Assembly (NCBI RefSeq): GCF_000317515.1 | Contig: NC_019738.1 | Coordinates: forward strand, 1,873,623-1,937,622 | Length of the DNA stretch: 64,000 nt | From: Allocoleopsis franciscana PCC 7113 | Lineage (GTDB): Bacteria > Cyanobacteriota > Cyanobacteriia > Cyanobacteriales > Coleofasciculaceae | Direction of reading: 5' to 3' | Notes under the pieces: generated by a model | What the model saw: the letters and a program-made list of their open reading frames with translations, nothing else | Told to the model about the DNA's origin: nothing | Databases searched by the model: none | Made by a program: the position numbers and the translations under genes | Part shown: positions 29,094-48,478 of the stretch, piece after piece | Position numbering within the stretch: position 1 is the stretch's first letter | Layout of the letters: each line of letters begins with the position of its first letter

Positions 29094-29750
29094 TTATTTT
29101 TTCTTCATTGCTAAAGGTAATACAGAAAGAAGAGCCAAAAAACTTAGCGCGATGAAAAAAGGGAGGCGATCGCCTCCCCGCAAAGCCTCTTTCCCAGCTA
29201 CTCCCAGCCATGCATAAGCCAAGGTTCCAGGGATAATGCCCAAGAACGTACCAACGGCATAATAAACCCAAGGGATAGAGGTCAGACCAAATAGGAAATT
29301 GACGACATTAAATGGAGAAATGGGAGCAAAGCGCACTGATAAGACAAAAGCCAAAGGTTTGTCAATTACCGCTTGATTGAACCGTACCAATGCCTTGTGA
29401 TGTCCAAAGCGGCGAACCGCCCAATTCCGCAGCAAGTAACGCGCCACCCCAAAGGCTCCAATCGCTCCCAGCGTGGCACCTACTACCGACAAAAAAGTCC
29501 CCCAGACTAAACCAAAAACGACGCTACCAGCAATGGTGAGAACCGTCCCCGGAACTCCTAAAACTGTGGCTAGAGTGTAAATGAGTACGAATAAATAGAC
29601 AGCCCAGTTACCGCATCGGTGCAACTGCTGCACGAGGAATTGCTGATTAAACAAGCCTTTTAAAGGCGTGAAGCAACACAACAGGCACAGTACCAAAAAG
29701 GCGATCGCTAGCCACAATCGAGGAGTTTTCAGCCGTCTGCTCAGAGTCAT
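29094..29750 (-). CDS. TVP38/TMEM64 (DedA-related) membrane protein
   Basis: 218 aa, polytopic; G..G..L.Y motif-like region; last gene of the ars-linked operon. Confidence 0.65.
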   Translation of the reverse strand: MTLSRRLKTPRLWLAIAFLVLCLLCCFTPLKGLFNQQFLVQQLHRCGNWAVYLFVLIYTLATVLGVPGTVLTIAGSVVFGLVWGTFLSVVGATLGAIGAFGVARYLLRNWAVRRFGHHKALVRFNQAVIDKPLAFVLSVRFAPISPFNVVNFLFGLTSIPWVYYAVGTFLGIIPGTLAYAWLGVAGKEALRGGDRLPFFIALSFLALLSVLPLAMKKK

Positions 29751-29787
29751 CGGTATTTAAATCTTATATCCACTTTCCAGTTTGGAT

Positions 29788-30783
29788 CTAAACCAAAGCA
29801 CCCCCACAACTCGAACCACAACCCGCTGTGCAACCATAGCAATAGGAAGCCGTGCGAATCTGATCAATTAAGTCTAAACTACCCGCTTCTAAGAGCTTCC
29901 CCACCGTCAATGTTTCCCCAGTGCGAGACTTCGCTCCTAGATTTTCCATTTGGTTAAAGTCGCAATCGTAGACATTGCCCAGATAATCAATCGAGAGTTC
30001 ATCACGACACATCAAATGTTCTATTGTACTTGCATTGTAATTGTCCTCTAGAAACCTGAGATAAGGAGAATATAACTTGGTTCGTTGCAAATGAAACTTA
30101 CTTCTACCCACAGGTAGATTTGTAATTGTAAATAGCTGGTTAAATTGAATATCAAAATGTTCTTTCAAGAACTTTTTGTAATCCTGTTCTAACTTAACCT
30201 GATTGGGAGTTAAAGAAAATTTATCACTCAATGGGAGTGGCGGATTATACACCAAATCAATAATTAAATTGGGGTCTTTCCCATAGCCTAACTGATTGAG
30301 CCATTGAATAGCACGAATAGAATCATTATAGACACCATTCCCTCGCATTTTATCCACATTGTCTTCTAAATAGCAAGGCAATGATGCCACTACTTTTAAT
30401 TGATTTTCGGCAAAATATTCAGGAAGATAGTCGAATCCGGGTTCAAAATAAATCGTCAAATTGGAGCGGACAATGACTTCCTTGCCCGTTTCCCGTGCTG
30501 CCTCAACAATTGGTTTAAATCCATAGTTCATCTCCGGTGCGCCACCCGTCAGGTCAACTATCTTAATTTGAGGAAAGCGATGAATCAGGTCAATGATTTG
30601 ATGGCAAATTTCCGGTGAAAGTTCTTCGGTGCGTTTGGGGCCAGCGTCTACGTGGCAGTGAGTACAAGCCAAATTACAACGCTTGCCTAAATTAATCTGT
30701 AAAACAGTAATTCTGTTTTTAGTTAAGGGTGAATTCAGTTTGGTTCTAAATGGCGTTACTGCTGGCGCTTCTATCTGAGTCAT
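29788..30783 (-). CDS. arsS: Radical SAM / Cys-rich domain protein, ArsS-like (arsenosugar-type)
   Basis: CNLACTHCHVDAGP radical-SAM cluster motif; C-terminal CYGCTAGCGSSCGG Cys-rich tail characteristic of the ArsS family. Confidence 0.6.
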   Translation of the reverse strand: MTQIEAPAVTPFRTKLNSPLTKNRITVLQINLGKRCNLACTHCHVDAGPKRTEELSPEICHQIIDLIHRFPQIKIVDLTGGAPEMNYGFKPIVEAARETGKEVIVRSNLTIYFEPGFDYLPEYFAENQLKVVASLPCYLEDNVDKMRGNGVYNDSIRAIQWLNQLGYGKDPNLIIDLVYNPPLPLSDKFSLTPNQVKLEQDYKKFLKEHFDIQFNQLFTITNLPVGRSKFHLQRTKLYSPYLRFLEDNYNASTIEHLMCRDELSIDYLGNVYDCDFNQMENLGAKSRTGETLTVGKLLEAGSLDLIDQIRTASYCYGCTAGCGSSCGGALV

Positions 30784-30831
30784 TTCTTAATACCTAACCA
30801 GTAAATTTTTGACTTTTGACTTTTGACTTTG

Positions 30832-33447
30832 TTAAGCTTTCCTCACCCGGCAAGCAAAGCATTTGTAGGCTTGCTGACCGGAAAGATTGTCGTAATATTG
30901 GTCATCTACCAGGGTATTGGCGGCTTCATAGTAGGGAGTTCCGAGTTCTTCAGCCATTTTTTGCATCGGGCCAAACGTATGAGGAACGAAGATGGTATCC
31001 TCACGAATACCCTCCCAAATTTGCGCGGTTCCGGTAATCGAACCTCTAGGACTTTCTACGGCGATCGCATCCCCATTCTTAATCCCCACCCTCTGCGCCA
31101 CTTTAGGATGAATTTGAACTAGCCGAATGCCGTTCATTTGCTTACCCGTGTACGTCCACTGAGTTACGGTGTGAAAATGCACCACACTCGGCCTACCAAT
31201 CATCCCCATCAGTGGATACTCTTGGTGTACTTCCCCAGAGGAAATTCCGCCTAACTTTACCTTTTGGGTTAGTGCTTGCGGATTTATTGGGTTTTGGACA
31301 AATTCTTTGCTGTACTCGATCGTTGGATTTTTGCCCGTTACTTCGGGATGGGTGTAAAAGATGGGTAAGGCTGCGTGTCCGGCAACGGCCAACTTTTTCT
31401 CTAATTCTGAGGTATAGATTTCTACTTTGCCACTGGGGGTCAAAAAGCGCTTGCCCTGGTTTCCAGAAGTCGCTGTAACCCCTCTGTTCGCGTCACTATC
31501 CTGACTCGCTGTATCAGCGTTCCTGATACCAAGCCCTTTCACCACCTGATACCAGGAGGGATGATCTAAGTAGAGGGTGCTGACGCCAGGATGATCCAGA
31601 GAAGGACAAGGCCAGCGCAGGGGTTCCGCCCGCTTTTCCATGCGTTCCTGGGTCATACCTCCCATACCAGGGGTATTCTTGACAAAGGTTGCCCAGAGAT
31701 TGCGGTAGTCTTTCCATTCCAGGGGGAAATTCTCTGTCCAGTAGGCGGGTGGATTTTTCTTGTCCAACTTAGCCATAGCGTGTGCCAAGTCGATCCAAAT
31801 TTCCCAATCGGGTTTGGACTCTCCCACGCGAGGAACCGCCTGCTTTTGCCAGCGAATTGCCCTGTCGTCCCGCCGCATATAGACGGTTTCCATCTCAAAG
31901 CCGCTGCACACGGGTAGGATGATATCGGCGTAATAGGCAGATTCTTCCATAAACAAGCCAGTGTAGACATAGAACTCTAGCTGGCGGTAAGCCTCTTTTA
32001 CCTGACGCGTGTTGGCACTGGAGACAAGGGGATTGCCCGCCGTTGCGATCGCCTTCAAGCGATAAGGCTTCCCAGTTAGGATAGATTCGGCAAAATAGTC
32101 TGGGCCAACGGGTAACGCCACATCTTTCTTGGGAGGATTGCCCTCGATTGCCGGAAGATTTAACCCACCAGGCCAAGTATTGTGCATGAAATTGCAGCCG
32201 CCACCATTTACGCCAATGTTGCCCGTAACAGCAGCTAAAAATGCCAGGGTTCGGTAAGTATCGAAGGCGTTTAGTTGATGGGAGATGCCAGCATTGCAGA
32301 AAATTGCGGCCGGTTTTGTCCTAGCGTACTCCTCAGCAATTTGTCTGATTTTACCTGCTGGAACCCCTGTAATAGTTTCTGCCCATTCCGGCGTGTAGCC
32401 TTGCTTAACCAGGTGAGTTTTCAACTCCTCGAAACCAAGCACCCATTTTTGCACAAAGGCGGCATCGTGCAGGTTCTTGTCCAGAATATGATGCAACATT
32501 GCGAGAACCAAAGCTTGGTCGGTATGCGGCTTCGGTGCAATCCACTCATCTGCCTGTGCACCAGTTGGCGTTAGTCGAGGGTCAATTACTATCAGCTTTG
32601 CCTTAGTTTGGGCGCGACTTCTCAGCAGGTAAGCAAAGGTTACGGGGTGAGTTTCCGCTTGATTGGTACCCAAAAATAAGAAGTATTTCGCTGCACCTAA
32701 ATCTTCTTTCCCTGTTGCGCCATCCTTACCGTAGCCGTTGGTGAAATTCCCCAAGCCAAACGTCCATGCTAAAGCGTTTCCTCCAGCATCGTTACAGACT
32801 GGGCCAACATCTGTGTCGTTAGGACTTCCCAAGAGGGTGAAGAAGCGTCCAATTACCGAACCTGTGCCTCGTGGCATTCTACCAGAGGTTTTGTTTGCGA
32901 TAGCGAAGCGCTGCTGCGAAGCGCAGATCGCGCGTACCTCTCCCGCATCCCGAAGCGCTAAGAATTTCGTAGCGATAGTTCCCAACGCTTCATCCCAAGA
33001 AATCGGCTCAAACTTGGAATCCGGAGAACCCTTCTCGCCGGAAACCCGCTTCATCGGACTTTTCAGGCGGAAGCGATTGTAAACCAGTTGTGTCATCATC
33101 GGTCCTTTGACACAAAAGCCCCCCGATTGAACTGGATCGTCCGGTTCACCCAGAACATCAATAATGCGCCCATCTTTGACATGAACTTTTAGGCGGCACA
33201 GGGAGTTACAGAATTGACAAGCACTATCGATGATTGCATCTGGTTGTAGCGCCCCAGATTTCTGAGTAAAGTCAAATTCTGCACTGGGGGAAGTGGTAGC
33301 GGGATAGTACCCATCTTCCTTTGCCTCAGCCTGTCCTTTGAGCAAATCAGCCCCAGTTACGGCAGCAGCACCAATCGCAGCACCTTTCAAAAAGCCCCGA
33401 CGCGAAACACCCTGACGCGATACTTTCTTTTTATCTTTTGATTTCAT
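30832..33447 (-). CDS. TAT-exported molybdopterin oxidoreductase, DMSO-reductase family catalytic subunit, substrate unknown
   Basis: SRRGFLKGAAIGAAAV twin-arginine signal; CQFCNSLC-X27-CVKG = CX2CX3CX27C [4Fe-4S] motif; 871 aa; no adjacent Fe-S or cytochrome subunit gene. Confidence 0.8.
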   Translation of the reverse strand: MKSKDKKKVSRQGVSRRGFLKGAAIGAAAVTGADLLKGQAEAKEDGYYPATTSPSAEFDFTQKSGALQPDAIIDSACQFCNSLCRLKVHVKDGRIIDVLGEPDDPVQSGGFCVKGPMMTQLVYNRFRLKSPMKRVSGEKGSPDSKFEPISWDEALGTIATKFLALRDAGEVRAICASQQRFAIANKTSGRMPRGTGSVIGRFFTLLGSPNDTDVGPVCNDAGGNALAWTFGLGNFTNGYGKDGATGKEDLGAAKYFLFLGTNQAETHPVTFAYLLRSRAQTKAKLIVIDPRLTPTGAQADEWIAPKPHTDQALVLAMLHHILDKNLHDAAFVQKWVLGFEELKTHLVKQGYTPEWAETITGVPAGKIRQIAEEYARTKPAAIFCNAGISHQLNAFDTYRTLAFLAAVTGNIGVNGGGCNFMHNTWPGGLNLPAIEGNPPKKDVALPVGPDYFAESILTGKPYRLKAIATAGNPLVSSANTRQVKEAYRQLEFYVYTGLFMEESAYYADIILPVCSGFEMETVYMRRDDRAIRWQKQAVPRVGESKPDWEIWIDLAHAMAKLDKKNPPAYWTENFPLEWKDYRNLWATFVKNTPGMGGMTQERMEKRAEPLRWPCPSLDHPGVSTLYLDHPSWYQVVKGLGIRNADTASQDSDANRGVTATSGNQGKRFLTPSGKVEIYTSELEKKLAVAGHAALPIFYTHPEVTGKNPTIEYSKEFVQNPINPQALTQKVKLGGISSGEVHQEYPLMGMIGRPSVVHFHTVTQWTYTGKQMNGIRLVQIHPKVAQRVGIKNGDAIAVESPRGSITGTAQIWEGIREDTIFVPHTFGPMQKMAEELGTPYYEAANTLVDDQYYDNLSGQQAYKCFACRVRKA

Positions 33448-33486
33448 GAAATCTCTCGGTAGATTTTCCCTGTTTCAAGTGGAGAA

Positions 33487-34377
33487 TTAACCTCTTATCC
33501 CGTTCACATAAGCTGCTGTTAAAGCTTCCTGCGGTGCTTCAAACATCTGCTGAACACATCCATATTCAATCAATCGCCCAACCCCATCTTGAACCCAAAA
33601 GAGGGCAGCATAGTCCGCAATTCTACGCGCTTGGGCTAAGTTATGGGTAACAATGAGTTGGGTGTAACGTCCCCGCAAACGGGCAATCAAATCCTCCACT
33701 ACACCGCTGGAAATCGGATCGAGAGCACTACAAGGTTCATCTAATAACAAGACTTCAGGTTTCAAGACCAAAGCCCTGGCAATACACAATCGCTGTTGCT
33801 GTCCGCCGGAGAGGGCGAGGGCAGGGGCATTCAGTCGGTCTTTTACCTCGTCCCACAAGCCCACATCTTCTAGAGTTGATTCTATAATTTGATCGACTTG
33901 TTCGCGGTTTTTAATGCCGTGCTCTCGTAGCGGTAATGCCAGATTCTTCCAAATTGATAGGGGGAAGGGGTTGGGCTTTTGGAAGATCATACCGACACGG
34001 CGACGGAGTGCGATCGCATCTATCTTGGCATCGAGTACATTCAGTAAACCCATCCGAATGTGTCCCGATACACGGCATCGGGGAATCAAGTCAGTCAGGC
34101 GATTGAGGCAGCTTAAAAAACTAGTTTTACCACAGCCAGAAGGCCCAACCAACGCCGTAATGCAACCCTCATGAATCGGTAACGTTACATCTGCGAAGAT
34201 CGGTTTCTCCCCATAGTGCAAACTTAATTGCTCAGTCTGAATCAAGGGGTGAGGCAAGTCGGAAAATTGGGGAGATTCATGTATGCCATTGGCGTTGCCG
34301 TTGGGTATTGTCTCTATGGGTTCAGGTGTATTCAAAGTAGTGTAATCCTCCGATGTAACCAATGCTGAGCCATCCAT
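33487..34377 (-). CDS. PstB-like ABC ATPase with ~45-aa N-terminal extension
   Basis: GPSGCGKTS Walker A; VGMIFQKPNPFP PstB signature; LSGGQQQRLCIARAL; LLLDEP. Confidence 0.8.
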   Translation of the reverse strand: MDGSALVTSEDYTTLNTPEPIETIPNGNANGIHESPQFSDLPHPLIQTEQLSLHYGEKPIFADVTLPIHEGCITALVGPSGCGKTSFLSCLNRLTDLIPRCRVSGHIRMGLLNVLDAKIDAIALRRRVGMIFQKPNPFPLSIWKNLALPLREHGIKNREQVDQIIESTLEDVGLWDEVKDRLNAPALALSGGQQQRLCIARALVLKPEVLLLDEPCSALDPISSGVVEDLIARLRGRYTQLIVTHNLAQARRIADYAALFWVQDGVGRLIEYGCVQQMFEAPQEALTAAYVNGIRG

Positions 34378-35258
34378 GCTGCTGTGCCATTAATCAGCAG
34401 CAACACAACCAGCAGCACTAAAGCTGATGCATAGGCATTTTTATCCCCTCCAGCAACATTCATCGAAAGATCGAAAATGTGAATGGAAAGGGCACGTCCA
34501 GAATCGAGTAGAGACTCCGGCATCCGATCTACGTAGCCACTGGTGAAGATGAGGGCGGCTGTTTCTGCGATCGCACGGCCCATTCCTAGCACCAATCCCA
34601 CCATAAGTCCCGGAACCGCCGCAGGTAAAAGCAAGTGCCACAACGTCGTCGTGCGCGAAAAGCCTAAAGCCGCTGCTGAGAGCCGATAATGGTTAGGAAC
34701 AGCACGAAACCCCTCTTCTGTCGCACGAATTAGAATCGGCAGCACCATACACGCCAGCGTTAATCCACCGGACAAAATCGAGAACCCTAGTCCTAGCACG
34801 TTGCAGAAGAAGGCATTCCCAAACAACCCAAAGACAATCGACGGCACACCTGCCAGAACATCCAAACTGCGACGTACCAGACGCCCGAAAAAACTTTCCT
34901 CCGAGGTGAATTCCGCTAGCAGTACAGCCGTACCTATCCCAATGGGAACGGAAACCGCCATGCAAACACCCAGAATTAGAAGAGTGGAGACAAGAATGGG
35001 ACCAATACCTCCCCGGCGTCCCGCATTCTCCGGTGCAGCTGTGAGAAACTCCCAGGAAAGTTGTCCCGCACCATGCCAAATAATGTCACTCAGTATCCAG
35101 AGGAAGACGGCGGTTACTAAAATAGCGATCGCCCAAACCACAACTGTAGGCAGTAAAGAGTAGACAGTGGCAAGACGACTCTTTTGTCTCCCGATTCCTG
35201 ACTCTAGGGCGGGCACGGAGGCACCGCCCCTACGACTCCTGACTCCCGTTTCAGTCAT
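34332..35258 (-). CDS. PstA-like ABC permease
   Basis: 6-TM permease; start chosen at internal Met giving an 8-nt overlap with the upstream permease. Confidence 0.7.
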   Translation of the reverse strand: MTETGVRSRRGGASVPALESGIGRQKSRLATVYSLLPTVVVWAIAILVTAVFLWILSDIIWHGAGQLSWEFLTAAPENAGRRGGIGPILVSTLLILGVCMAVSVPIGIGTAVLLAEFTSEESFFGRLVRRSLDVLAGVPSIVFGLFGNAFFCNVLGLGFSILSGGLTLACMVLPILIRATEEGFRAVPNHYRLSAAALGFSRTTTLWHLLLPAAVPGLMVGLVLGMGRAIAETAALIFTSGYVDRMPESLLDSGRALSIHIFDLSMNVAGGDKNAYASALVLLVVLLLINGTAAWMAQHWLHRRITLL

Positions 35259-36159
35259 AAATTCTCCCCTTGCTGATTCCCTCAGCCGCAACAACCAGTG
35301 CCACAATCAGCGCCATCAGCACCAATCCACTGACAAAGAGTGCTGAACGATGATTACCTGTTGCATAAGCCATTTCTAGGGCAATATTGGCGGTGAGTGT
35401 CCGCATCGGTTCAAATAGACTCTTAGGAGTTTGCACGACATTGCCGCAAACCATCAAAATTGCCATTGTTTCACCAATAGCGCGACCTGTTTCTAGAATC
35501 ACCCCCGTGAACAGTCCCGATTTGGCAGCAGGAAAAACAACCCCCCAAATCATTCCCCACCGGGAGAATCCCAGCGCCGACGCACCCCGCAGGTATTCTG
35601 GAGGAACCTTGGCGAGGCTGGCATCTGCCATGAGTGCGACTGTAGGCAAAATCATAATCGTGAGGATAGCAATCCCAGCTAAGAGACTGGTTCCCGGCGG
35701 TTGGATGCGTCCAATAATCGGCACCAATACGACCAAACCCCAGAATCCGTAAACGACGGAGGGAATTCCCGCCAGTAACTCGATCAGCCGTCGATAGAGT
35801 CCGGCAATCGTGGGAGGAGCATAGTAGTGGCAGAAGACAGCAGATAAAATCCCCAATGGTGTCGCTACCAGCACTGAACCCGCCATTGCCAAGAGGGTGC
35901 CCCAAAGCATGGGGGTGAGGTTGTAGAGTCCTTCTGCGGGATTCCAGGATGCATCAGTGAAGAAGCGCAATAGTCCGACGTTTTGCAAAACTGGCAGCGC
36001 TTCCAACCCTAGAAACACCACAATCAAAATGACGATCGCACCCGCAACAACCGCACATCCCCGCAGCGTCCAGATGAGGATTTGGTCACTTTGATAGGGA
36101 GACAAAATTCTGCTCTTTGACAATGTTCTGTACCTTTGGCGATCGTGCGAAATCAACAA
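35251..36159 (-). CDS. PstC-like ABC permease
   Basis: 6-TM permease with EAA-like loop (RGASALGFSRWGMIW); the annotated start overlaps the pstS-like 3' end, so the real start is probably downstream. Confidence 0.7.
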   Translation of the reverse strand: MLISHDRQRYRTLSKSRILSPYQSDQILIWTLRGCAVVAGAIVILIVVFLGLEALPVLQNVGLLRFFTDASWNPAEGLYNLTPMLWGTLLAMAGSVLVATPLGILSAVFCHYYAPPTIAGLYRRLIELLAGIPSVVYGFWGLVVLVPIIGRIQPPGTSLLAGIAILTIMILPTVALMADASLAKVPPEYLRGASALGFSRWGMIWGVVFPAAKSGLFTGVILETGRAIGETMAILMVCGNVVQTPKSLFEPMRTLTANIALEMAYATGNHRSALFVSGLVLMALIVALVVAAEGISKGRIYD

Positions 36160-36940
36160 ATTCCTTCTCCAACCCTTGAGGTTGAGTTTTCATCACCAAG
36201 TTGAGGGGACGGGAAATAGGAAACGTCTCGTTTTGCACATTTGCTGTAGTAGCGGCTACTCCATTAACAGGCAGTAGCTTGATAGGAACACCGTTGCTAG
36301 AGCCATATTCCGCTGTCCCAATCGACACGTATCCGATCGCGTTGGGATTACCCGCAACTGTCTTAATTCCCTGCTCATTGTCACCAATCACCACTTGAGC
36401 TTTGATGTCACTATTCTTGAGCTTGAAGTAGTTCGTAAACAGTTCTAGCGTGGAGCGTCCCTCAGCTTTATTGACTACAGTGATAGGAGCATCCTTGCCT
36501 CCTACCTGCTTCCAGTTGCCAATCTTGCCTGTGTAAATATCAACAACTTGGCGATCGCTCAGGGACTGTACTGGATTATCTTTGTGAAGGATGATTGTCA
36601 CACCATCACGAGCGATCGTAAACGCTTGAAGGTCTTTTTCGTCCTCCTTGAGAGCGCGAGAAACCATACCAATGTTAGCTAGTCCTTTGCGAGCATCCGT
36701 AATGCCGCGAGAGGAACCACCACTCTGCACATCCACCCGTACAGCGGAATGTTCAGCCTCAAAGCGCTTGCCAATTTCGGAGGCTAGAGGTGCAACTGTG
36801 CTGGAGCCGGTTAATACTAGCTTGCCCTGTAATTTATCACTGGACTGTGTTGATGCTTCTGGGGGCTTAGTACAGGATTGTAACCCCATACAAACCGCCA
36901 AACTCATGGAAAGCGATGCCAGTATTCGGAAGTTTTTCAT
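36086..36940 (-). CDS. PstS-family periplasmic phosphate/oxyanion-binding lipoprotein
   Basis: Lipobox LQSC; LTGSSTVAPLA and SGGSSRGI...GMVSRAL motifs of the short PstS family. Confidence 0.75.
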   Translation of the reverse strand: MKNFRILASLSMSLAVCMGLQSCTKPPEASTQSSDKLQGKLVLTGSSTVAPLASEIGKRFEAEHSAVRVDVQSGGSSRGITDARKGLANIGMVSRALKEDEKDLQAFTIARDGVTIILHKDNPVQSLSDRQVVDIYTGKIGNWKQVGGKDAPITVVNKAEGRSTLELFTNYFKLKNSDIKAQVVIGDNEQGIKTVAGNPNAIGYVSIGTAEYGSSNGVPIKLLPVNGVAATTANVQNETFPISRPLNLVMKTQPQGLEKEFVDFARSPKVQNIVKEQNFVSLSK

Positions 36941-37104
36941 AAGTGATGCACTGAAATTATCCTGTCGGAATTAATCAAAGGAGAGGAGGCAGCAACCAAG
37001 GTCAATTGTCCTACCAGGGAATGAGGGCGCAATACTCCCATCTCCTCGTAGCCGGAGCTTTAGGGGGGAAGGGGTTGGGGGAGAGGTATCCCTTGCAGTA
37101 TTTG

Positions 37105-37240
37105 AGACGAGTGGTGTCTGGCAGAACCTTCAGCTTGCGGACACAAAACGACTGGGGTAACTCGTTTTTCTGGTTTATGGCTCACTGCCTGCCTGGATTG
37201 AACCGTGATTGATATGAAATTATATTCATATTTTAATTAA
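37105..37240 (-). promoter_or_regulatory. Duplicated arsR promoter/operator plus dead 5' fragment of arsR, upstream of the pstS-like operon
   Basis: ~85% identical to 57012-57140 (arsR start region). Contains the imperfect palindrome TTGATATGAAATTATATTCATAT. The start codon is mutated to ATA in this copy. Confidence 0.55.
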
Positions 37241-37384: not shown

Positions 37385-37639
37385 TTGGTAGGGATGCCTG
37401 CCAACGCAGATGTCGTAAAAGTGACAGACGTGCAGCTCAAACCAACCGCCGATGGTCTAGAGGTGATTTTAGAGACGGCTTCACGAGCATCACCCCAACC
37501 TAAAACCTCCAGCGAGAACCAGACCTTGTTGATTGACTTGAGCAATGCTCAGTTGAACTTACGAGGCGGTGGGGAGTTTCACTCCGAAAACCCAGTTGAG
37601 GGCATCACTTTCTGTAACAGTAACTTCCCTGTCTGCTAA
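37385..37639 (+). pseudogene. AMIN-domain fragment, possible remnant of a TBDR/secretin N-terminus
   Basis: VKVTDVQLKPTADGLEVILET...LLIDLSNAQL pattern, 84 aa, no signal peptide. Confidence 0.3.
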
Positions 37640-37655
37640 CAGCATCCGCATTTTC

Positions 37656-38075
37656 TTAACCCCTACCAAAGAACCGTTTAAAGGGATTTGAGGCAACTTG
37701 CCCAAACCTTCCAGGCAGATTTCGTTGAGCCGCTTGAACCGGGTCTGGATCTGTGAAAATTTGGGCGGCGCGATCGCGAAGCATCCCGTTAGGGTTATCG
37801 CGAAGTTGAGAGCTGTGATCCTGAGAAGTGGAAACAAGCCTTGCGCCTTGTTCACCTTCATCCATTTGGGCATCAGCTAGAGCGGTCTGATAGGCTTGAT
37901 TTAAGGAAGGGAGGCTAGCTGCGATCGTAGGCAGTTCCACAATTCGAGCTTCCAGATTCTGACCAATAGCATGAAGCTGTTGTTGCAGTCCCGATGGCAA
38001 AGATTCATCCTGACGACCAAGGGCGGTCATAAAAGCCACAAGAATTTTTTCGTTTTGAGAGTTTAAAGAAGTCAT
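37656..38075 (-). CDS. Hypothetical protein
   Basis: 139-aa ORF, Gln/Ala-rich, no motif. Confidence 0.3.
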   Translation of the reverse strand: MTSLNSQNEKILVAFMTALGRQDESLPSGLQQQLHAIGQNLEARIVELPTIAASLPSLNQAYQTALADAQMDEGEQGARLVSTSQDHSSQLRDNPNGMLRDRAAQIFTDPDPVQAAQRNLPGRFGQVASNPFKRFFGRG

Positions 38076-38549
38076 GATTTAAAAAATTTTGCCAATACAA
38101 AAATACTGAAAGTCTATTTACTTAATAGTAGGAAAATTTGTGAGCTTTGAACTCAGAGAGTGACAGAAATCTAACTTTGGGCAGAGCCGTTATTTCCCGC
38201 TTCTAGTGGTAAGCCAATACTGTTTTGCGTATTTCCTCACTCAATCAGTAGTGCTATTGGTTCAGAATGACAAACTGATTTTTAATGGTGTAGCCTGCTG
38301 CTTCATTAACAGTAAGCACATCATGACCTGCGGTTTGAAGCAAATTGACGAGATATTTTGCCTGAGAATCTACCCTTCGGGAAGCCACCTACGGTGTCTA
38401 CGTCAAGGAGCAGTCGTAGTCCCGACATGAAGGTACTCCAACCTATGCTGGTGTTTGAATTCTAGTATGAGCGATCAGCTTCGCTGGTGTTCTTATGTGA
38501 TCGCATCACGTACCATAGGCTAGTCATTTGGCTTATAACCCATTAAGTC

Positions 38550-39014
38550 ATGCCTCAGCGAGACGCGATTCATAACATCATCAAGCAAGCTCTCATCAAG
38601 GAGGGTTGGGAAATCACGGACGATCCCTATGTCATATCGTATGGTGAGCGATTTCTCTTTATCGACTTGGCAGCAAGGTTAGATGCGCTCAATGGTATTG
38701 CAGGACGCTTTATCGGTGCTAGACGCGGTAGCAGTCGAATTGCCGTTGAAATTAAGGAGTTTCGAGGCAACTCGGCAATTGCTGATTTGGAGCAAGCGAT
38801 TGGTCAATATGTTCTTTATCGATTACTCCTCGAACAGGTTGATCGAGAGCGTGAGTTGTATCTCGCTGTTGCAGACACAACCTTTGACGGGATTTTCAGC
38901 GAACCGATTGGTGATTTGGTGATGCGTGAGTTACCAATGAAATTGCTTATTGTAGATGTAGAGGCGGTAGAGGTGAAGCGATGGATACCAGCACGAGAGA
39001 GCGGGACATTGTAA
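38550..39014 (+). CDS. xisH: XisH family protein (PD-(D/E)xK-like)
   Basis: MPQRDAIHNIIKQALIKEGWEITDDPY...ERFLFIDLAA...IAVEIK. Confidence 0.8.
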   Translation: MPQRDAIHNIIKQALIKEGWEITDDPYVISYGERFLFIDLAARLDALNGIAGRFIGARRGSSRIAVEIKEFRGNSAIADLEQAIGQYVLYRLLLEQVDRERELYLAVADTTFDGIFSEPIGDLVMRELPMKLLIVDVEAVEVKRWIPARESGTL

Positions 39015-39304
39015 AGCAGGTGATTCAACGATACGCCCAGTTCAAACCTTCTCATGGCCATATTCGACTCGACACGGTATTTGACGACACGCAAAACCGC
39101 TATGCACTAATGCAAGTGGGTTGGGATAGAGGACGACGGGTTAGGGGAAATTTGATTTATGTGACTTTGAGTGAGGGTAAGGTTTGGGTGGAATATGACG
39201 GGATGGAACAGGGAATTACTAAAGATCTAATTGCCGCAGGTATCCCTCCAGAGCGAATTGTTCTTGCATTTCTCCCTGAAGAGCAAACTGCTGCAACTGC
39301 CTAA
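38981..39304 (+). CDS. xisI: XisI family protein
   Basis: Overlaps xisH 3' end; ...RYALMQVGWD...GKVWVEYDG. Confidence 0.8.
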   Translation: MDTSTRERDIVKQVIQRYAQFKPSHGHIRLDTVFDDTQNRYALMQVGWDRGRRVRGNLIYVTLSEGKVWVEYDGMEQGITKDLIAAGIPPERIVLAFLPEEQTAATA

Positions 39305-39324
39305 ACTCAAATTATGATGAGCTA

Positions 39325-39377
39325 GCGATCGCACCTGTACATATATACAGTCAAAACCCACCTACACGAACGAGCGC
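39325..39377 (+). repeat. Left copy of ~50-bp imperfect direct repeat flanking the nuclease scrap island
   Basis: GATCGCACCTGTACATATATACAGTCAAAACCCACCTACACGAACGAGCGC vs the copy at 41536-41584, about 80% identical. Confidence 0.45.
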
Positions 39378-39459
39378 TCTGTTCGTTCATTCTTACATTC
39401 AAGTAGCAGATAAAAGCTATCATACCATCTAATATAAACAAAAAGGTAATGGCACCTTA

Positions 39460-40599
39460 TCAAACACGAATAGGGCTTCCAGCAATGCACCAATTCATAA
39501 CAACTTGTCCAATCTTTTCCCAATCAGAATGCATGGATTTATCAACTATTTTTGCAATCTCATGAGGATTTTTATGTTTAAGATATTCAACGGTATTGCT
39601 GAGCGTATTTTCTCCAAATCCCAGTGATATTTTACATTTACATTCTCCACTATTATTACTGCATTGCCAGTTAGCTTGACACCAATCATCTATAGAACTT
39701 GATATATTGGGAATTAAAGAAGTTTTTACTTCCCAAAAAGATTTAATTTTAGGATTACTTGCATTAATAATTTCCTTCATCCGAGTTCCTTTTTTTATAT
39801 CTAAAAAACGCCTAATCTCGAATGCCGTACTACTAATATTTTCAAAGATTTTTAAAACTTTGAGTCTTTCCTGGTTTCTTGAACACAGTTCAGATAAAAT
39901 TGAGTTAGGTATTAAGTTTTCAATTTCACGGCAATCAAGAATAAAAGTTTGCGTATTTATACAATTTGAATCGCTCTGAGTTTGGATGAGAGATGCTGTG
40001 GAGCCAAAGTTTCCATCAGGAGCAATTTTATCGCTATCTACAATACAAAGACAAAAACGTTTTTTTAATTCTTGAATATTAATATATTCAAGAGAAATTG
40101 TATTGCCGCCACCTCCTCTACCTTCGCATACTATTTTGATATTAATGTTGTTCCATACAAGATAAATTTTTGCTATGGTTTCGTATAGAATAGTATCATG
40201 AATATTTTCACACAGAAGTATGGTTTTCTGTACTAACTCTGAATCATTAAAAAAACGTGGAGCAACTTTAATAATTTGCTTACCTGAATTAGACACCACT
40301 TCTGGTTCATAACAAGAATTAACAAGTTCAATATATCTGGTTACCGCAGAAAGGTAAGATTCTAATTGTGTAGATTCTAATTGTGTAGATTGGTTAAATA
40401 ACTTGTTGTAAGTATTCCTGGCAAATTGAGATAAACGACGGCATTGAGCAATCTTTTTGAAAATTTCTCTCTTAGCCATTACTAAAGGCTTACCTTCCCG
40501 ACGAGCAGATGCAAGATTTTCTAAAGCCAAAACAGTTTCATCGTCCCAACTATTTTCATCTCCATTATCTACTACAGAGCTATTGATAAAAATCAGCAT
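39460..40599 (-). CDS. DUF4435/Toprim-like (AriB/OLD-type) putative nuclease, AT-rich
   Basis: KIVCEGRGGG (E), CIVDSDK (DxD), DCREIENLIP (RExEN) in Toprim order; Cys-rich C-terminus; GC content far below surroundings. Confidence 0.45.
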   Translation of the reverse strand: MLIFINSSVVDNGDENSWDDETVLALENLASARREGKPLVMAKREIFKKIAQCRRLSQFARNTYNKLFNQSTQLESTQLESYLSAVTRYIELVNSCYEPEVVSNSGKQIIKVAPRFFNDSELVQKTILLCENIHDTILYETIAKIYLVWNNINIKIVCEGRGGGGNTISLEYINIQELKKRFCLCIVDSDKIAPDGNFGSTASLIQTQSDSNCINTQTFILDCREIENLIPNSILSELCSRNQERLKVLKIFENISSTAFEIRRFLDIKKGTRMKEIINASNPKIKSFWEVKTSLIPNISSSIDDWCQANWQCSNNSGECKCKISLGFGENTLSNTVEYLKHKNPHEIAKIVDKSMHSDWEKIGQVVMNWCIAGSPIRV

Positions 40600-41235
40600 T
40601 TATACAAGTTCCATCTCGAAAAAACCTAGCGGCCAGTTTAAAAGATACCCATCTGAATTGAATTGAGAGTTTCTTATTGTTACTCCTCCTAGTTTATCGG
40701 ATGGTTCAAATAAAACAATGTTGATTTCATCAGGAGATATTTTACCTTCAGAAACTAATTGTCCTAGGCGATTTACCAATATTTCACTATGGGTTTCAAT
40801 CATTACCTGAATCCGTTGACTTCCCTGCTCTGCAATGGCATAGGCGAGAATTTGGGTATTTTGCACATCTACCACCCAATACTCAGCCACACCCAACTCT
40901 TCATACAGTGCCCGTTTAGTTCCTATATCATCCAGCAACGACGTTTTAGCAACCTCAATAACTAAATTTGGTGCTGGATTCTGATCAAGATTAACAATCC
41001 CCGTACTTGATGGGATAGCCTGAACGCGATCTGCGCTTCGCAGCAGCGCTTCGTTATCGCCAACGTAATAAGACACATCCGGCTGACATTCCCTAACACC
41101 TGGTTTACGAAGAGTAGTGGTGTCTAAACCTCTTAACGGAATACCTTTAATTGCTGCAAACAAATTAACTGCCAGAATAATTACAACATGATCTTGTCCA
41201 TGATCAAAACTAACTGGCAACATCTCAATCCTCAT
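40600..41235 (-). pseudogene. Chimeric ORF: nearly complete Uma2 (DUF820) fused in frame to the C-terminal ~65 aa of an ABC/AAA_15-type ATPase
   Basis: PDVSYY...NLVIEVAKTS...EYWVVDV Uma2 core, then VMIETHSEILVNRL (H-loop THS motif). GC content drops sharply at ~40830. Confidence 0.5.
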
Positions 41236-41535
41236 GTGACCCTTGTAGTAGTAGCCCTTTGCCTTCTCATAAATTGGGTCTTCAATCGTGCGGACATACT
41301 CCTCTCATGAGGCTGTTAACCATATATCTGTGCGGGGTCTGGTTTGTAACTCACTCATGGTCTATATCGGTTGGTAGTTTGGCTTGTAGTTGGCTCATAA
41401 CCACCCTTTTAGCTACCGCTCACCCACATCTTAACGTAGGGGCGATCGCCCTTGGCGCTACGCTGCGCGTAATCGCACACTCTGAATGTGGAGGATGAAC
41501 AGTGAGACTGATAGCGAAGCGCTGCCGCCAAAGGC

Positions 41536-41584
41536 AGATCGCACCCATACCTACATACAGCCAAAACCAACTTACGCGATCGCT
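41536..41584 (+). repeat. Right copy of ~50-bp imperfect direct repeat
   Basis: AGATCGCACCCATACCTACATACAGCCAAAACCAACTTACGCGATCGC. Confidence 0.45.
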
Positions 41585-42333
41585 CCCTCAAAATAAATTC
41601 TAAAGGGTTCAGCGAGAATCCCTAATATTTGATTCAGCTGAGTAATGAAATATTCAGTCAAATCGATTTTGACAACCCGATCTTCTAACCTTATAAATTT
41701 CCAGTTAGTCCCTGTTGAAACTGCACCATACACCACTTGCTGTTCCAGCCCCTTACGAGCATTAAATATTTGAGCAGCAACCATTTGAGCTACACATTGT
41801 CCTAACCCAATGCGGATATCATTATCTTTCGCTTCAACCAAAGTTAAGACAGGCGCAGTCACTAGCGATTGATTGCTTGATGCACTTAAGATAAAATCAC
41901 AGGCTCCCGTTAAACCTTTTGATTCATCAACATTAAACGTATTACCCGAAAAATAACCGATTTTATTCTGAAATATACGTCTTACTTCCAATAAAATCGG
42001 AGTAATAATTAATTCAGATCGAGCTTTTTCTGTACTAATGCTTGCCGCTAAATCTAACGTTTCATCCAGCATTTCCTTAAGCCGTTGAGAAGGTTCAATG
42101 GGTGTCACCTGGCTAAAGAAATGAGGAATATCCTCGACTGTTAAATCGAGGGTAGAAACGGCTTGGTCAATCGTTTTGAAATCACTGTATGACATATTCT
42201 CAGAGTCAGCAGCACTTACAACGCTACCATAACCATTCTGCCAAACCGACATCTTGCACCATGCCCTCAGAATGGAAAATGAAGCTCTGCTCACAAGAAT
42301 TAAACCAGTAATTTTATAAATTGAAGACGCCAA
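41572..42333 (-). CDS. Hypothetical PD-(D/E)xK-like protein
   Basis: CDFIL ... LTLVEAKDND (D...EAK) motif; start codon uncertain. Confidence 0.35.
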   Translation of the reverse strand: MASSIYKITGLILVSRASFSILRAWCKMSVWQNGYGSVVSAADSENMSYSDFKTIDQAVSTLDLTVEDIPHFFSQVTPIEPSQRLKEMLDETLDLAASISTEKARSELIITPILLEVRRIFQNKIGYFSGNTFNVDESKGLTGACDFILSASSNQSLVTAPVLTLVEAKDNDIRIGLGQCVAQMVAAQIFNARKGLEQQVVYGAVSTGTNWKFIRLEDRVVKIDLTEYFITQLNQILGILAEPFRIYFEGAIA

Positions 42334-42410
42334 ATTGAGAGTCGATTACGATCGCCTCCGATACCAGCTTGAGCGATTGCCTCTGCCACTAGCGAAGCCG
42401 ATCGCTCTTA

Positions 42411-42815
42411 CTATCTTTGAGCAGCGATCGCCAGTTTAGCGCCCTTAACTCGACGCAAACGATCCATCACACTCACCACCCGACCATGATCGACTTTTTC
42501 ATCTGCATTGACAATCACCAGTGATTCAGAATTCGTCTCTACCAAAGAGCGTACCGAGTCTTCAAGAGCCTCCAACTGAATCGGTTTACGGTTGAGAGCC
42601 AACACTCCATCTGGCTGAATCGTCACCGTAATTTTGGTACTCGGCTGAGATTTTGCAGTTGAGGCACTGGGTAAATTCACGGGTAACCCTTCCGAACGGG
42701 TTAAATACAGTGTTGAAATAATGAAAAATGCCAGTATCGAGAAAATCACATCAATCATCGGCACAATGTTGATTTCTCCTGGCCTGTCTACCTCATCGGG
42801 AAGCCGCATAGACAT
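42411..42815 (-). CDS. exbD: Biopolymer transport protein ExbD/TolR
   Basis: 134 aa, N-terminal TM, INIVPMIDVIF motif. Confidence 0.8.
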   Translation of the reverse strand: MSMRLPDEVDRPGEINIVPMIDVIFSILAFFIISTLYLTRSEGLPVNLPSASTAKSQPSTKITVTIQPDGVLALNRKPIQLEALEDSVRSLVETNSESLVIVNADEKVDHGRVVSVMDRLRRVKGAKLAIAAQR

Positions 42816-43443
42816 CTCTCCCTTGTTCGTATTGACGACGATAAAGCAGTTCTAACTGACCACCGTACTCCTGAATTAACGCTAGCTGTCGCTGATAAAA
42901 AGAACGGAACATATTGGCGAAAAACAGGGTGAAGATTGCCACAACCAACCCCATCACCGTTGAGACGAGAGCCTCACTAATTCCTCCAGTAACTCCCGTC
43001 GTGCGGCTACCCCCAACATCACCAATCTTCAAGGAAGAAAAAGCCGTCATCAAGCCCAAAATCGTGCCTAAAAGACCCAATAATGGCGAAATTCCAACAA
43101 TCGTATCAAAAACGCTGTTAAAACGCTTTAATGTTGGCAGTTCAGCTTGTGCCGCACTTTCTAAGGCAATGCGAAATTCCTCAGGATTGGGGCGGTCTAG
43201 TTCTAAGGCTTCCAAGAAAATCTTGGCAATGGGCAAGTCAGCATTCTGCTGTAGGTAGTTAATCGCATTTCTTGGGTTCTGTTGGTACATCTTCAGCGCA
43301 TCTCTGACAACTCGACGCTGCCGACGATTCACCCGAAACCAAAACAGCAATCGCTCAGCAATCAGGGCAACAGACGCCAGGGAAAAGACCAAAAGCGGCC
43401 AAGCGACGATTCCACCCGCCTTAAAAAAATTAACAATTGACAT
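42793..43443 (-). CDS. exbB: MotA/TolQ/ExbB proton channel
   Basis: 3 TM helices, GLLGTILGL... motif. Confidence 0.8.
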   Translation of the reverse strand: MSIVNFFKAGGIVAWPLLVFSLASVALIAERLLFWFRVNRRQRRVVRDALKMYQQNPRNAINYLQQNADLPIAKIFLEALELDRPNPEEFRIALESAAQAELPTLKRFNSVFDTIVGISPLLGLLGTILGLMTAFSSLKIGDVGGSRTTGVTGGISEALVSTVMGLVVAIFTLFFANMFRSFYQRQLALIQEYGGQLELLYRRQYEQGRDVYAASR

Positions 43444-43961
43444 AAATTCTCAGAAATGGTATGTCATAAAACCGAGTCAGCGTTGGCGCATCTCTCAACA
43501 AGAAAAAGCTGATAAATACTTTCAATAGAAATATTGCTAATAGTTCTCATTGTCAAGTATTTCGCTGAAAAAAGCCTCGTATCTGGCGAGTGGGAAGACG
43601 TTTTGTTCTCAAAAAAGACGCCTGAAACCACTGTTATATAAAGATTTCGCCCAATTTTTCTTGTAGAACCCAACCGACCTGGATTCAAATTTCTTACTTG
43701 ACATAGGTAGCTAAGTCGTTTTACTTTGTGATGCTTAAATAAAAATAGTTGCAATAAACCATATTTTCTTGAGAAGTCCCTGAAAGTTTCAGCCTAGTAG
43801 AGCGTCAAGGTAGATTTGAGGGGTAATTTAATAAAACTTCTGTCCCCCTTGTCCTCTACCAACCCTTCAATTCAAGGTTGACAGACTACTAGTACAGCGC
43901 GGCGGAAATAACCCACCAGTTCCAAAAGATTAAAAAGCTTGCTGTACAAGCAATATCCCTT

Positions 43962-43989
43962 CTGCCTCCTGCCTCCTGCCTCCTGCCTT
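43962..43989. repeat. CTGCCTC heptamer x3-4
   Basis: ctgcctcctgcctcctgcctcctgcctt upstream of the TonB-dependent receptor gene. Confidence 0.5.
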
Positions 43990-44155
43990 CTTGCACTAGG
44001 GCGCTAGGAATGAACTTTGACAGCGTGTCTTTTGACGTAGATGACAGCCTCAATCAAACTATCTGTAACTTTTTCGAGCCAGCGCTAACTGTATTCCCTG
44101 AGCGTTTGCCTCAAAAGCCAAATTGGGTGGTATGCGTCATTTTCGTTAAAAAAGC

Positions 44156-48441: not shown

Positions 48442-48478
48442 ACCACATCAAAAAGGAGTTGAGAGGTTTCTTCAGCCT

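Follow-up and report, generated by a model that had tools for sequence, protein, structure and literature searches.

We analysed a 64-kb stretch of the Allocoleopsis franciscana PCC 7113 genome (contig NC_019738.1, positions 1,873,623 to 1,937,622; here called the window), in which seven closely packed genes lie directly behind a partial copy of the promoter region and 5′ end of arsR, the gene of an ArsR/SmtB-family repressor. The seven genes encode a PstSCAB-like transporter, an exported molybdenum (Mo) enzyme, the radical S-adenosylmethionine (SAM) protein ArsS and a VTT-type membrane protein. An earlier note on this DNA had read the upstream copy as a promoter-capture event. Our comparison with related loci contradicts this: the copy is very probably the relic of the operon's own arsR, decayed in place, and the genes behind it belong to a conserved cyanobacterial cluster. 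The overall explanation that we favour, in which a native arsR decayed, the operon is controlled in trans by an intact paralogue and the Mo enzyme acts on arsenic, has in our estimate a probability of about 0.68. The strand, family identities and tight packing of the seven genes given in the earlier note were borne out by the listing of open reading frames (ORFs) and by curated family models:

36086–36940, minus strand: substrate-binding protein of the PstS family, its signal sequence probably that of a lipoprotein (family profiles)
35251–36159, minus strand: PstC permease (TIGR02138, 248 bits against a cutoff of 196)
34332–35306, minus strand: PstA permease, likely ATG start at 35258 (TIGR00974, 247 bits against a cutoff of 193)
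33487–34377, minus strand: PstB-like ATP-binding cassette (ABC) ATPase (TIGR00972, 320.5 bits against a cutoff of 343.2)
30832–33447, minus strand: Mo enzyme of 871 aa from an uncharacterised family, with a twin-arginine translocation (TAT) signal and a predicted Cys-ligated molybdenum/tungsten-bis(pyranopterin guanine dinucleotide) (Mo/W-bisPGD) cofactor (Pfam domains and motif)
29788–30783, minus strand: ArsS, arsenosugar radical-SAM enzyme (TIGR04167, 417.4 bits against a cutoff of 300)
29094–29750, minus strand: VTT/TVP38 (DedA-like) membrane protein (VTT domain match)

The four pst genes overlap one another, and the remaining spacers measure 39 nt (pstB–Mo), 48 nt (Mo–arsS) and 37 nt (arsS–VTT). 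The related loci or contigs (L-numbers) used for comparison included 87 retrieved through the Mo enzyme and 34 from a metagenome scan with ArsR.

The upstream region of the operon and the intact arsR locus comprise the following features:

37208–37231, minus strand: putative operator of the decayed arsR, with a perfect inner palindrome ATATGAA-TATAAT-TTCATAT (palindrome scan and alignment)
37105–37178, minus strand: 5′ remnant of the arsR pseudogene, codons 1 to about 25, ATG changed to ATA (alignment and tblastn)
37018–37104, minus strand: filler of 87 nt, unrelated to arsR, in place of about 190 nt of the arsR middle
36971–37017, minus strand: 3′ remnant of the arsR pseudogene, the last 14 codons (GRTIDLGCCLLSFD) and the stop (37/47 nt identical to intact arsR)
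57174–58142, minus strand: arsenosugar-type ArsM (NF038099, 580.5 bits against a cutoff of 400, residues 2–322 of 322)
57107–57140, minus strand: putative operator of the intact arsR, extended palindrome GCGATTGATATGAA-ATTATA-TTtATATCAATCGC (palindrome scan and alignment)
56779–57084, minus strand: intact ArsR (ArsR1), ArsR/SmtB family, 101 aa (NF033788, 78.4 bits against 55; PF01022, 54.6 against 22)

The repeat extends over about 127 bp and spans the arsR operator and the 5′ end of arsR. It aligns 37105–37191 with 57011–57097 (84% identity) and 37185–37231 with 57087–57133 (87%), with one 4-nt insertion or deletion, and in the 37-kb copy the arsR start codon ATG is ATA (37176–37178). In this respect the earlier description, a copy of the arsR promoter, operator and about 25 codons with a mutated start, was accurate. 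The palindrome ATATGAA-N6-TTCATAT occurs at just two places in the window, at 37212 without mismatch and at 57114 with one, against 0.23 occurrences expected by chance. At the 37-kb operator the proximal outer arm (..ATCAATC) is retained and the distal outer arm is gone; the central hexamer is TATAAT (37219–37224), oriented toward pstS. In the intact copy a TATATT sits 2 nt further downstream than this TATAAT. The operator variant of the 37-kb locus is also present in L109 and L089.

The similarity to arsR is not confined to the 5′ end. ArsR of L007 aligns with 37178–37104 by tblastn at 80% identity over 25 aa, and the 3′ remnant is 83% identical to L109. Between the two remnants, the filler shows 49% identity to arsR, which amounts to no homology, and neither the window nor 126 related loci gave a further copy of it, so the idea that it is a mobile or dispersed element was rejected. 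The 30-nt spacer between the 3′ remnant and pstS is also partly conserved: a joint alignment of L007 and the intact arsR with the 37-kb region matches its proximal part to the arsR–pstS spacer of L007. Because the 3′ codons, the stop and part of the spacer survive at the 37-kb locus together with the 5′ end, the arsR pseudogene appears to stand in its native position, and the palindrome before pstS would be a native operator rather than a captured one, since it is here that arsR1 decayed.

Related loci supply the intact form of this arrangement. In L007, whose Mo enzyme is 85% identical to that of the window, arsM, arsR, pstS, pstC, pstA, pstB, the Mo gene, a second arsR, an aquaglyceroporin gene, an arsC of the low-molecular-weight phosphatase type, arsS and a VTT gene follow one another in the same direction, and a convergent GGDEF/EAL gene comes next; the window proteins are 72–91% identical to those of this cluster. 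L124 is syntenic with L007 but lacks the pst genes, so that arsR1 lies directly upstream of the Mo gene. The VTT gene after arsS recurs in both. Extra genes for a dual-specificity-phosphatase-like and an FMN_red (ArsH-like) protein were seen between arsC and arsS in L124 (10552–11778), which shows the cluster to be mosaic, with resistance genes swapped into it. Among the loci of the metagenome scan, arsR is followed directly by pstS, and by pstC, pstA and pstB where the contig continues, on 11 contigs (L094, L095, L098, L101–L104 and L106–L109); arsM directly precedes arsR in L088, L091, L092 and L110, and the order in L094 is arsM-arsS-arsR-pstSCA. From this gene order, the comparison shows the window's seven genes as the distal part of a conserved mosaic cyanobacterial cluster, arsM-arsR1-[pstSCAB]-Mo-[arsR2-aqp-arsC]-arsS-VTT (aqp, aquaglyceroporin).

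Conservation of the operator in relatives, which the earlier note had proposed as a check, was evident as well. In nearly all arsR–pstS and arsM–arsR loci of the metagenome scan, and also in L124, the palindrome with at most 2 mismatches lies about 40–60 nt upstream of the arsR start. The 1.71 Mb of related loci contain 16 sites with at most 1 mismatch; of the sites listed, most were just upstream of an arsR. In the set of 87 loci retrieved by way of the Mo enzyme, the palindrome stands before arsR in L007 only, and L080 has one unrelated site with 1 mismatch. An arsR-first layout, with the operator upstream and the structural genes co-directional, is found in L007, L124, L094, L095, L098, L101–L104 and L106–L108.

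The 19.6 kb that separate the 37-kb block from arsM–arsR in the window hold genes for ExbB/ExbD, a TonB-dependent receptor, TonB-like proteins, two FecCD permeases, an ABC ATPase, XisH, Uma2 and a MORN protein. Judged by these genes, it is an iron-uptake block unrelated to the arsenic cluster. Within this island (37385–56759) we also noted two TonB-C proteins with long Q/E/R-rich repeats (48130–49105) and a 10-repeat MORN protein (49211–50296).

The position of the block and the state of arsR in its closest relative agree with decay in place. Because the GGDEF/EAL neighbour of the window block is orthologous to that of L007 (63% identity), the pseudogene-pst-Mo-arsS-VTT block appears to occupy the ancestral site. 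L109, the nearest relative of the window pst genes (PstS 89%, PstC 91%), carries the same operator variant (…AAAACATGAATATAATTTCATATCAAT…), then a full-length frameshifted arsR (Cys12 changed to Tyr) and then pstS. By its sequence, this frameshifted gene has gone less far along the same path of decay. When L109 is compared with the window, identity is 83.5% in the operator/leader and 83–85% in the remnants, against 43–45% in flanking non-coding DNA and 67% at third codon positions of pstS. Such conservation of the operator/leader fits a retained cis-function; it fits recent independent decay also.

The age of the duplication was ambiguous when three sequences were compared. With more relatives the remnant groups with L109 and L089, and the 57-kb gene with L088. 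The 5′ region of the 37-kb remnant is 81% identical to L109, 80% to L089 and 77% to the window's intact arsR; L090 reaches 87%, but over the short coding part alone, as its contig starts just upstream of arsR. The intact 57-kb arsR is nearest to L088 (90%). Since the remnant is nearer to L109/L089 and the intact gene nearer to L088, the two arsR copies would be old paralogues, not a parent and its recent copy. A tandem operator–arsR duplication is seen in L105, and duplicates of this kind would offer a simple origin for the two copies. The L105 pair (2130–2889) consists of two arsR1 paralogues, each behind its own perfect ATATGAA-N6-TTCATAT; the second lacks all three conserved cysteines (C12 and the CC pair are replaced) and may be an arsenic-blind repressor.

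The candidate regulator in the window is the intact ArsR1, which has a winged-helix HTH_5 domain above the family cutoff. All of 19 ArsR1 homologues keep its Cys12 and a C-terminal LGCC motif (Cys95-Cys96) unchanged. Characterised As(III) sites are of three types: CxCxxC in helix 3 (type 1), Cys95-96-102 (type 2) and Cys15-16-55′ (type 3) (PMC11868830). Like AfArsR (Cys95-Cys96-Cys102), ArsR1 has a vicinal cysteine pair numbered 95–96, but the third cysteine is absent; SpArsR, which is selective for trivalent methylarsenic, MAs(III), likewise has a C-terminal vicinal pair without a third C-terminal cysteine (PMC11868830). ArsR1 differs from both in its extra invariant Cys12 and in ending at residue 101, and it lacks the cysteine arrangement of CgArsR. 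By analogy with these proteins, a reasonable effector would be MAs(III), to which SpArsR responds, or As(III), for which Cys12 would serve as the third ligand.

On the minus strand that the two genes share, arsM comes upstream of arsR, and the operator sits in the arsM–arsR spacer. Being upstream of the operator, arsM would not be under its control, and it has a conserved leader of its own; the cis-regulatory link to arsM drawn in the earlier note is thus incorrect in its particulars. This leader of about 110 nt (58143–58260, minus strand, …GTAGCATCAAAGCTGGAGAGAGGAATTTACTGATTCAGG…) is kept in six loci (the window, L007, L088, L091, L092 and L094) and contains a small palindrome, CTGATTCAG. Rfam gave no match on the whole window or on the arsM leader, and the RNAalifold structure of the leader was not convincing (−1.8 kcal/mol). 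The leader may be a promoter or a regulator site that acts independently of the arsR operator.

How the 37-kb sequence arose and whether it still works were weighed together. In the capture reading, an arsR promoter/operator/5′ piece of about 135 bp was copied from the arsM–arsR locus to a place before an unrelated pst-Mo-arsS operon, giving it arsenic control. The identity of the copies (82–87%) and the fact that only the 5′ part is obvious by eye speak for it. It is nevertheless very improbable, given the surviving arsR 3′ end, the spacer that partly aligns with L007, arsR–pstS adjacency as the common state among relatives, the frameshifted intermediate in L109, the greater similarity of the 37-kb copy to the L109/L089 lineage (80–81%) than to the 57-kb copy (77%), and the ancestral syntenic site. 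What the earlier note called the parent arsR does lie 19.9 kb away beside arsM, but it is very probably not the parent. A generic dispersed repeat, the other origin considered there, has a negligible chance of being correct: small dispersed repeats do exist in the window (for example a 36-nt element at 32897, 41025 and 41510), but the upstream segment has two copies only in 64 kb and is homologous to arsR coding sequence, and in 1.71 Mb of related loci the palindrome stands almost only before arsR genes. That the sequence is the relic of the operon's own arsR within a conserved cluster therefore holds with high confidence.

Whether the relic's operator functions is a less certain matter, and several observations weigh against it. 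A simple sigma-70 consensus scan of both operators gave no correctly oriented promoter and no −35 support. The loss of the distal outer arm at the 37-kb operator counts on the same side, and the operator's similarity to that of L109 could be due to decay that was recent and independent. ArsR1 is without the proven As(III) sites, having no helix-3 cysteine, no third C-terminal cysteine and a single N-terminal Cys12, and it weakly resembles thiol/persulfide sensors (BigR, 53 bits). A terminator scan gave the same counts as in shuffled sequences. It is thus conceivable, if unlikely, that the operator remnant is non-functional and that the operon is constitutive or answers to another signal, e.g. 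phosphate starvation through SphR/PhoB, its promoter lying within the filler or at some other place. The missing arm and the missing consensus promoter would fit, as would the Pho-like neighbourhoods of the Mo enzyme in Nostoc (see below) and the need for low phosphate plus arsenate in induction of the Streptomyces bsn cluster (PMC4943196). Set against this are an inner 7-6-7 palindrome that is perfect, and better than that of the intact copy, its retention in L109 while flanking non-coding DNA has fallen to 43–45% identity, and a perfect TATAAT in the right orientation at its centre. An ArsR-type operator with arsenic-responsive control of the operon is plausible by analogy, and such control is a reasonable inference because in relatives the transcription unit of these genes begins with arsR behind this operator. 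On balance, it is likely that the intact ArsR1 exerts such control in trans.

Under this preferred reading, a decayed native arsR with control in trans, intact ArsR1 would repress both operators and would be released when a trivalent arsenical binds the thiols of Cys12 and Cys95-Cys96. As the operator overlaps the −10-like TATAAT, bound repressor would block initiation, and at both sites it would lie over the −10 region. Induction would then supply a Pst-type importer of phosphate/arsenate; a Mo enzyme that is exported, works on its own and would use an arsenic oxyanion outside the cytoplasm, with arsenite to arsenate as the favoured direction; ArsS, which with ArsM would make the 5′-deoxyadenosyl-dimethylarsenic precursor of arsenosugars; and a VTT/DedA-type membrane protein that, as pure conjecture, might handle arsenosugar lipids.

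The products of the operon fit this outline to differing degrees. PstC and PstA exceed their equivalog cutoffs, and PstS (TIGR02136, 200.3 against 206.6) and PstB fall slightly below theirs. The best match of the PstS-like protein among solved structures is Clostridium perfringens PstS (4GD5, E = 1e-43), and its nearest solved proteins bind phosphate. PstC has an N-terminal extension that overlaps pstS and is kept in L109. ArsS was assigned by a CxxxCxxC radical-SAM motif, a Cys-rich DUF3641 C-terminal domain and a score above the equivalog cutoff; it matches both Radical_SAM (PF04055) and DUF3641 (PF12345) and exceeds that cutoff.

The Mo enzyme matches Molybdop_Fe4S4 (PF04879), Molybdopterin (PF00384) and Molydop_binding (PF01568), which places it in the Mo/W-bisPGD, or dimethyl sulfoxide (DMSO) reductase, superfamily. 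C77-x2-C80-x3-C84 and C112 are invariant in the family. Export is predicted from a twin-arginine motif, VSRRGFLKG (VSRRGFLKGAAIGAAAVTG), in which S15, R16, R17 and F19 are invariant in 12 homologues. The active site reads VGPVCNDAGG, and GCNFMHNTWPGG replaces the Arg-containing RGQxNxQG-type motif. No NCBIfam model reached its cutoff; the best partial scores were 317 against 666 for the alpha subunit of formate dehydrogenase (Fdh), 279 against 694 for PhsA, 187 against 1600 for ArrA and 78.6 against 359 for AioA. ArrA/ArxA was rejected, as NF041714 covers the N-terminal half only (187 bits against 1600) and no ArrB/ArxB-type gene is present in the window or in the related Mo loci examined; AioA was rejected, as TIGR02693 covers only residues 282–444 (78.6 bits against 359) and there is no Rieske gene nearby. 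The nearest solved relatives are formate dehydrogenases, but FdhF/FdhH was rejected too (TIGR01591, 317 against 666): Cys218 aligns with Sec140 (selenocysteine), but the next residue is Asn, not His, and the position of Arg333 is a gap. Cys218 also aligns with the Mo-ligand Cys of polysulfide reductase. A Thioalkalivibrio candidate for an ‘alternative arsenite oxidase’ is cytoplasmic, Soe-like and unrelated. By these motifs the Mo enzyme is Cys-ligated and a family of its own. An AlphaFold2 model built on a 12-sequence alignment was unusable (mean predicted local distance difference test score, 33.6).

More than 100 close homologues (73–89% identity) carry generic names only. A genome scan gave 234 relatives, of which the best 80 are 64–84% identical and come from Cyanobacteria, Verrucomicrobiota (Chthoniobacterales), Planctomycetota (Gemmataceae), Acidobacteriota, Actinomycetota and one myxobacterial metagenome-assembled genome. 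Such conservation across phyla is unusual. The window gene itself carries a 36-nt repeat (32897–32932) that brings an in-frame insertion of 27 nt/9 aa, CASQQRFAI, absent from 11/11 aligned homologues. This palindromic, HIP1-like element (GCGATCTGCGCTTCGCAGCAGCGCTTCGCTATCGC) has further copies at 41025–41060 and 41510–41542 (97% and 88%) in or near a Uma2-family gene at 41 kb. Near residues 640–662 the enzyme has another insertion, about 20 aa long.

Neighbourhoods were counted in 75 Mo loci with at least 6 kb of flank, scoring ars-type genes within 10 kb. Such a gene is present in 36 of the 75 (Actinomycetota 15/16, Verrucomicrobiota 9/14, Cyanobacteria 7/34), and 15 of the 75 have a full pstSCAB-like set. 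In L001, L006 and L122 arsM is directly upstream of the Mo gene (4–10 nt), and arsS is just downstream in L001, L009 and L122, so that L122 has a tight arsM-Mo-arsS cassette. pstB is directly upstream in L007 and the window, and a PHO4/PiT transporter gene is near the Mo gene in 6 loci. Verrucomicrobiota neighbourhoods contain true ArsS (436 and 418 bits) and ArsM-like proteins. In five Streptomyces loci (L074, L077, L078, L082 and L086; about 10001–19900) the Mo gene overlaps the start of a gene for a homologue of EPSP synthase (EPSP, 5-enolpyruvylshikimate-3-phosphate), followed by an independent phosphoglycerate mutase (iPGM) homologue and PstS-PstCA-PstB, with thiamine pyrophosphate (TPP) decarboxylase and ArsR genes nearby. 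By its gene set, which matches the bsnM/bsnN/bsnJ pathway, each is a bsnMN-type arsonate cluster. Four Verrucomicrobiota loci (L042, L044, L064 and L075) have, directly before the Mo gene, a gene for a secreted protein of about 264 aa without Pfam match (MSKSLFRPLAF…NNIPTADTAPQG…), which might serve as a channel in the outer membrane or as an accessory protein.

From these contexts we consider it probable that the Mo enzyme acts on an arsenical. We favour an exported oxidoreductase for the As(III)/As(V) couple because the contexts share a phosphate/arsenate importer and arsenic-handling enzymes. Oxidation of arsenite to arsenate is our tentative choice of direction, since the hosts are aerobic, there is no quinol-oxidising partner and the product fits Pst/PiT transport and use by BsnM; the aio–pst islands of Proteobacteria would be a parallel case. 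Here, too, some findings stand on the other side. The As(III) requirement of ArsM agrees more directly with a reductase than with an oxidase. No FeS (iron–sulfur), Rieske, cytochrome or quinol dehydrogenase partner gene was found near the Mo gene in any related Mo locus examined; in a search of these loci for c-type cytochromes beside it, the CxxCH matches were the radical-SAM motif of ArsS only. Within Cyanobacteria just 7/34 loci show ars linkage. In several Nostoc genomes (L003/L004 from Nostoc sp. DSM 114160, and five other loci), the Mo enzyme stands beside very large secreted phytase-like, alkaline-phosphatase/glycerophosphodiester phosphodiesterase (GDPD) and sulfatase/phosphodiesterase genes, with no ars gene, and this neighbourhood looks like phosphorus scavenging.

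The opposite direction would make the enzyme a reductase that converts arsenate outside the cytoplasm, or methylated and other organic As(V) species such as MAs(V), dimethylated DMAs(V) and arsonates, to trivalent forms, either feeding ArsM/ArsS or yielding toxic trivalent organoarsenicals. As=O chemistry is analogous to the reduction of DMSO and trimethylamine N-oxide (TMAO), the arsM-Mo-arsS cassettes are tight, the substrates of ArsM and ArsS are trivalent by family knowledge and NCBIfam names, and an aquaglyceroporin gene, an As(III) route, is part of the L007 and L124 clusters. Since arsenate competes at Pst, its removal would also suit the Pho-like Nostoc context. ArrA is reportedly, from its structure paper, marked by HSxxC at the active-site position, where the Mo enzyme has VGPVC; this absent signature (NF041714, 187 against 1600), the aerobic host taxa, the lack of a quinol dehydrogenase, cytochrome or FeS partner nearby and the need of bsnM-type enzymes for As(V) make a reductase a rather unlikely, if serious, rival, and the gene of microbial MAs(V) reduction was, according to PMC4457076, still being sought in 2015. 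A role of the Mo enzyme and Pst in phosphorus nutrition, through periplasmic oxidation of reduced phosphorus (phosphite) or arsenate-insensitive phosphate uptake, with presence in ars clusters because arsenate mimics phosphate starvation, seems improbable. It would account for the phytase, alkaline-phosphatase and GDPD neighbours in six Nostoc loci, the PiT/Pst linkage, the scores of PstC and PstA as true phosphate permeases and the solved formate dehydrogenase relatives (C–H oxidation), but the Fdh signature of Sec/Cys-His plus Arg is absent, the Mo gene lies between arsM and arsS with spacers of 4–130 nt, it is translationally coupled to bsnM-like genes, and 15/16 actinobacterial loci are ars-linked. 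Extending the arsenic reading, the Mo enzyme could found a fourth arsenic-specific molybdoenzyme family after Aio, Arr and Arx, stand-alone, TAT-exported and Cys-ligated, that interconverts inorganic or methylated As(III)/As(V) outside the cytoplasm; combined with a dedicated Pst/PiT importer, it would supply arsenic to organoarsenical biosynthesis as a module recruited independently by arsM/arsS clusters (Cyanobacteria, Verrucomicrobiota) and bsnMN clusters (Actinomycetota). We put this forward as a possibility and no firmer than the oxidative direction.

The regulatory layout resembles that of known systems. E. coli R773 arsRDABC-type operons likewise have an ArsR/SmtB winged-helix repressor and a palindrome just upstream of arsR, and in relatives of the window arsR is similarly followed by co-directional structural genes. 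The window departs from this type in that its cis arsR is a pseudogene and the sole intact copy is about 20 kb off, that Cys12 and Cys95-Cys96 of ArsR1 are unlike the proven As(III) triads, and that the cargo is an importer, a Mo enzyme and organoarsenical biosynthesis rather than an efflux pump. The layout is thus ordinary, a classical arsR-first ars operon minus the cis copy. In arsenic islands of Proteobacteria, the arsenite oxidase genes aioBA are joined with pstSCAB/pho genes. Like the window, these islands bring ars regulators together at one locus with a second Pst system and a periplasmic Mo enzyme, but the window Mo enzyme is not AioA, is Cys-ligated and has no Rieske subunit, and arsM/arsS are also in the cluster. 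Compared with ArrA/ArxA, the Mo enzyme shares Mo-bisPGD, a TAT signal and an N-terminal [4Fe-4S] motif; it differs from ArrA, ArxA and AioA in scoring far below their cutoffs, in having no B subunit gene nearby and in its active-site motif. Together, ArsS and ArsM should make the adenosylated dimethylarsenic precursor of arsenosugars. Both families score above curated cutoffs in the window and are adjacent or near each other in relatives, whereas in the window they are 27 kb apart, and the Mo, Pst and VTT companions are outside the described arsenosugar pathway. The biochemistry of ArsS was reported by Cheng et al. 2021, as cited in PMC12159101. Each of the three arsenic molybdoenzymes known so far pairs with a small FeS or Rieske subunit in a heterodimer (PMC6620896); for the window's Mo enzyme no such partner was found.

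Two published clusters come closest in gene content. The arsR-sphX-gapdh-arsJ-acr3-arsH cluster of Nodularia spumigena (PMC3610870) has, like the window relatives, a cyanobacterial arsR directly followed by a PstS-family gene, but the binding protein stands alone, and there is no permease/ATPase, Mo enzyme or arsS. In the Streptomyces bsn (bisenarsan) system, arsenate induces the genes of the transporter and of ArsR when phosphate is low (PMC4943196), the bsnM/bsnN/bsnJ arsonate pathway starts from As(V) (PMC12159101), and ArsR binding occurs inside the S. coelicolor bsn cluster (bioRxiv 10.64898/2026.06.06.730586). The bsnMN-type clusters of other Streptomyces species carry a homologous Mo enzyme (64–66%), a Pst-like ABC transporter and several ArsR genes. 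EPSP-synthase, iPGM and phosphonopyruvate decarboxylase (PPD) homologues and a polyketide synthase (PKS) are features of bsn, and none was seen in the annotated part of the window; for the EPSP-synthase and iPGM homologues bsnM/bsnN, this part covers 28–38.5 kb and 37–61 kb. The Mo enzyme is not mentioned in PMC4943196, PMC12159101 or bioRxiv 10.64898/2026.06.06.730586, and in the literature searched we found no paper on its family or its linkage to arsM/arsS, an absence that is no proof of novelty. Nor did we find a description of its linkage to bsnMN-type clusters or of the full arsM-arsR-pstSCAB-Mo-…-arsS-VTT cluster. The earlier suggestion that the combination is undescribed in cyanobacteria therefore stands for the Mo enzyme and its arsM/arsS link and falls for arsR beside a PstS-family gene, which is published in Nodularia (PMC3610870).

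Elsewhere in the window, tandem paralogous genes for Ser/Thr-kinase-like proteins (58967–60337 and 60399–61901) have DNA blocks that are 68–76% identical, and the second has an extra glycine/arginine-rich insert (…GTRGRGDAETINPTEYQFPFPPYQGGAGGGF…) that resembles a small inserted repeat. Six tandem 126-nt units, 66–74% identical, lie at 3686–4441, and a 43-nt tandem duplication (93% identical) at 53245–53330 is just downstream of the ABC ATPase gene.

For the regulation of the operon, these results describe one that lost its cis-encoded repressor after duplication and probably relies on the paralogue in trans, a natural example of an operon split with the operator kept. Their main value is in the cargo: a strongly conserved exported Mo enzyme that lies between arsM and arsS in cyanobacteria and heads bsnMN-type operons in Streptomyces, and that is a good candidate for new arsenic biochemistry. 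If the enzyme does act on arsenic, it would be a new enzyme family in the arsenic cycle and a candidate for a missing enzyme of that cycle, e.g. for arsenite oxidation without aio/arx or for the reduction of methylated As(V). It would also explain the phosphate-type importers in organoarsenical clusters, and would give arsenic biochemists a concrete, widespread gene and an addition to the arsenic-gene databases used in metagenome annotation.

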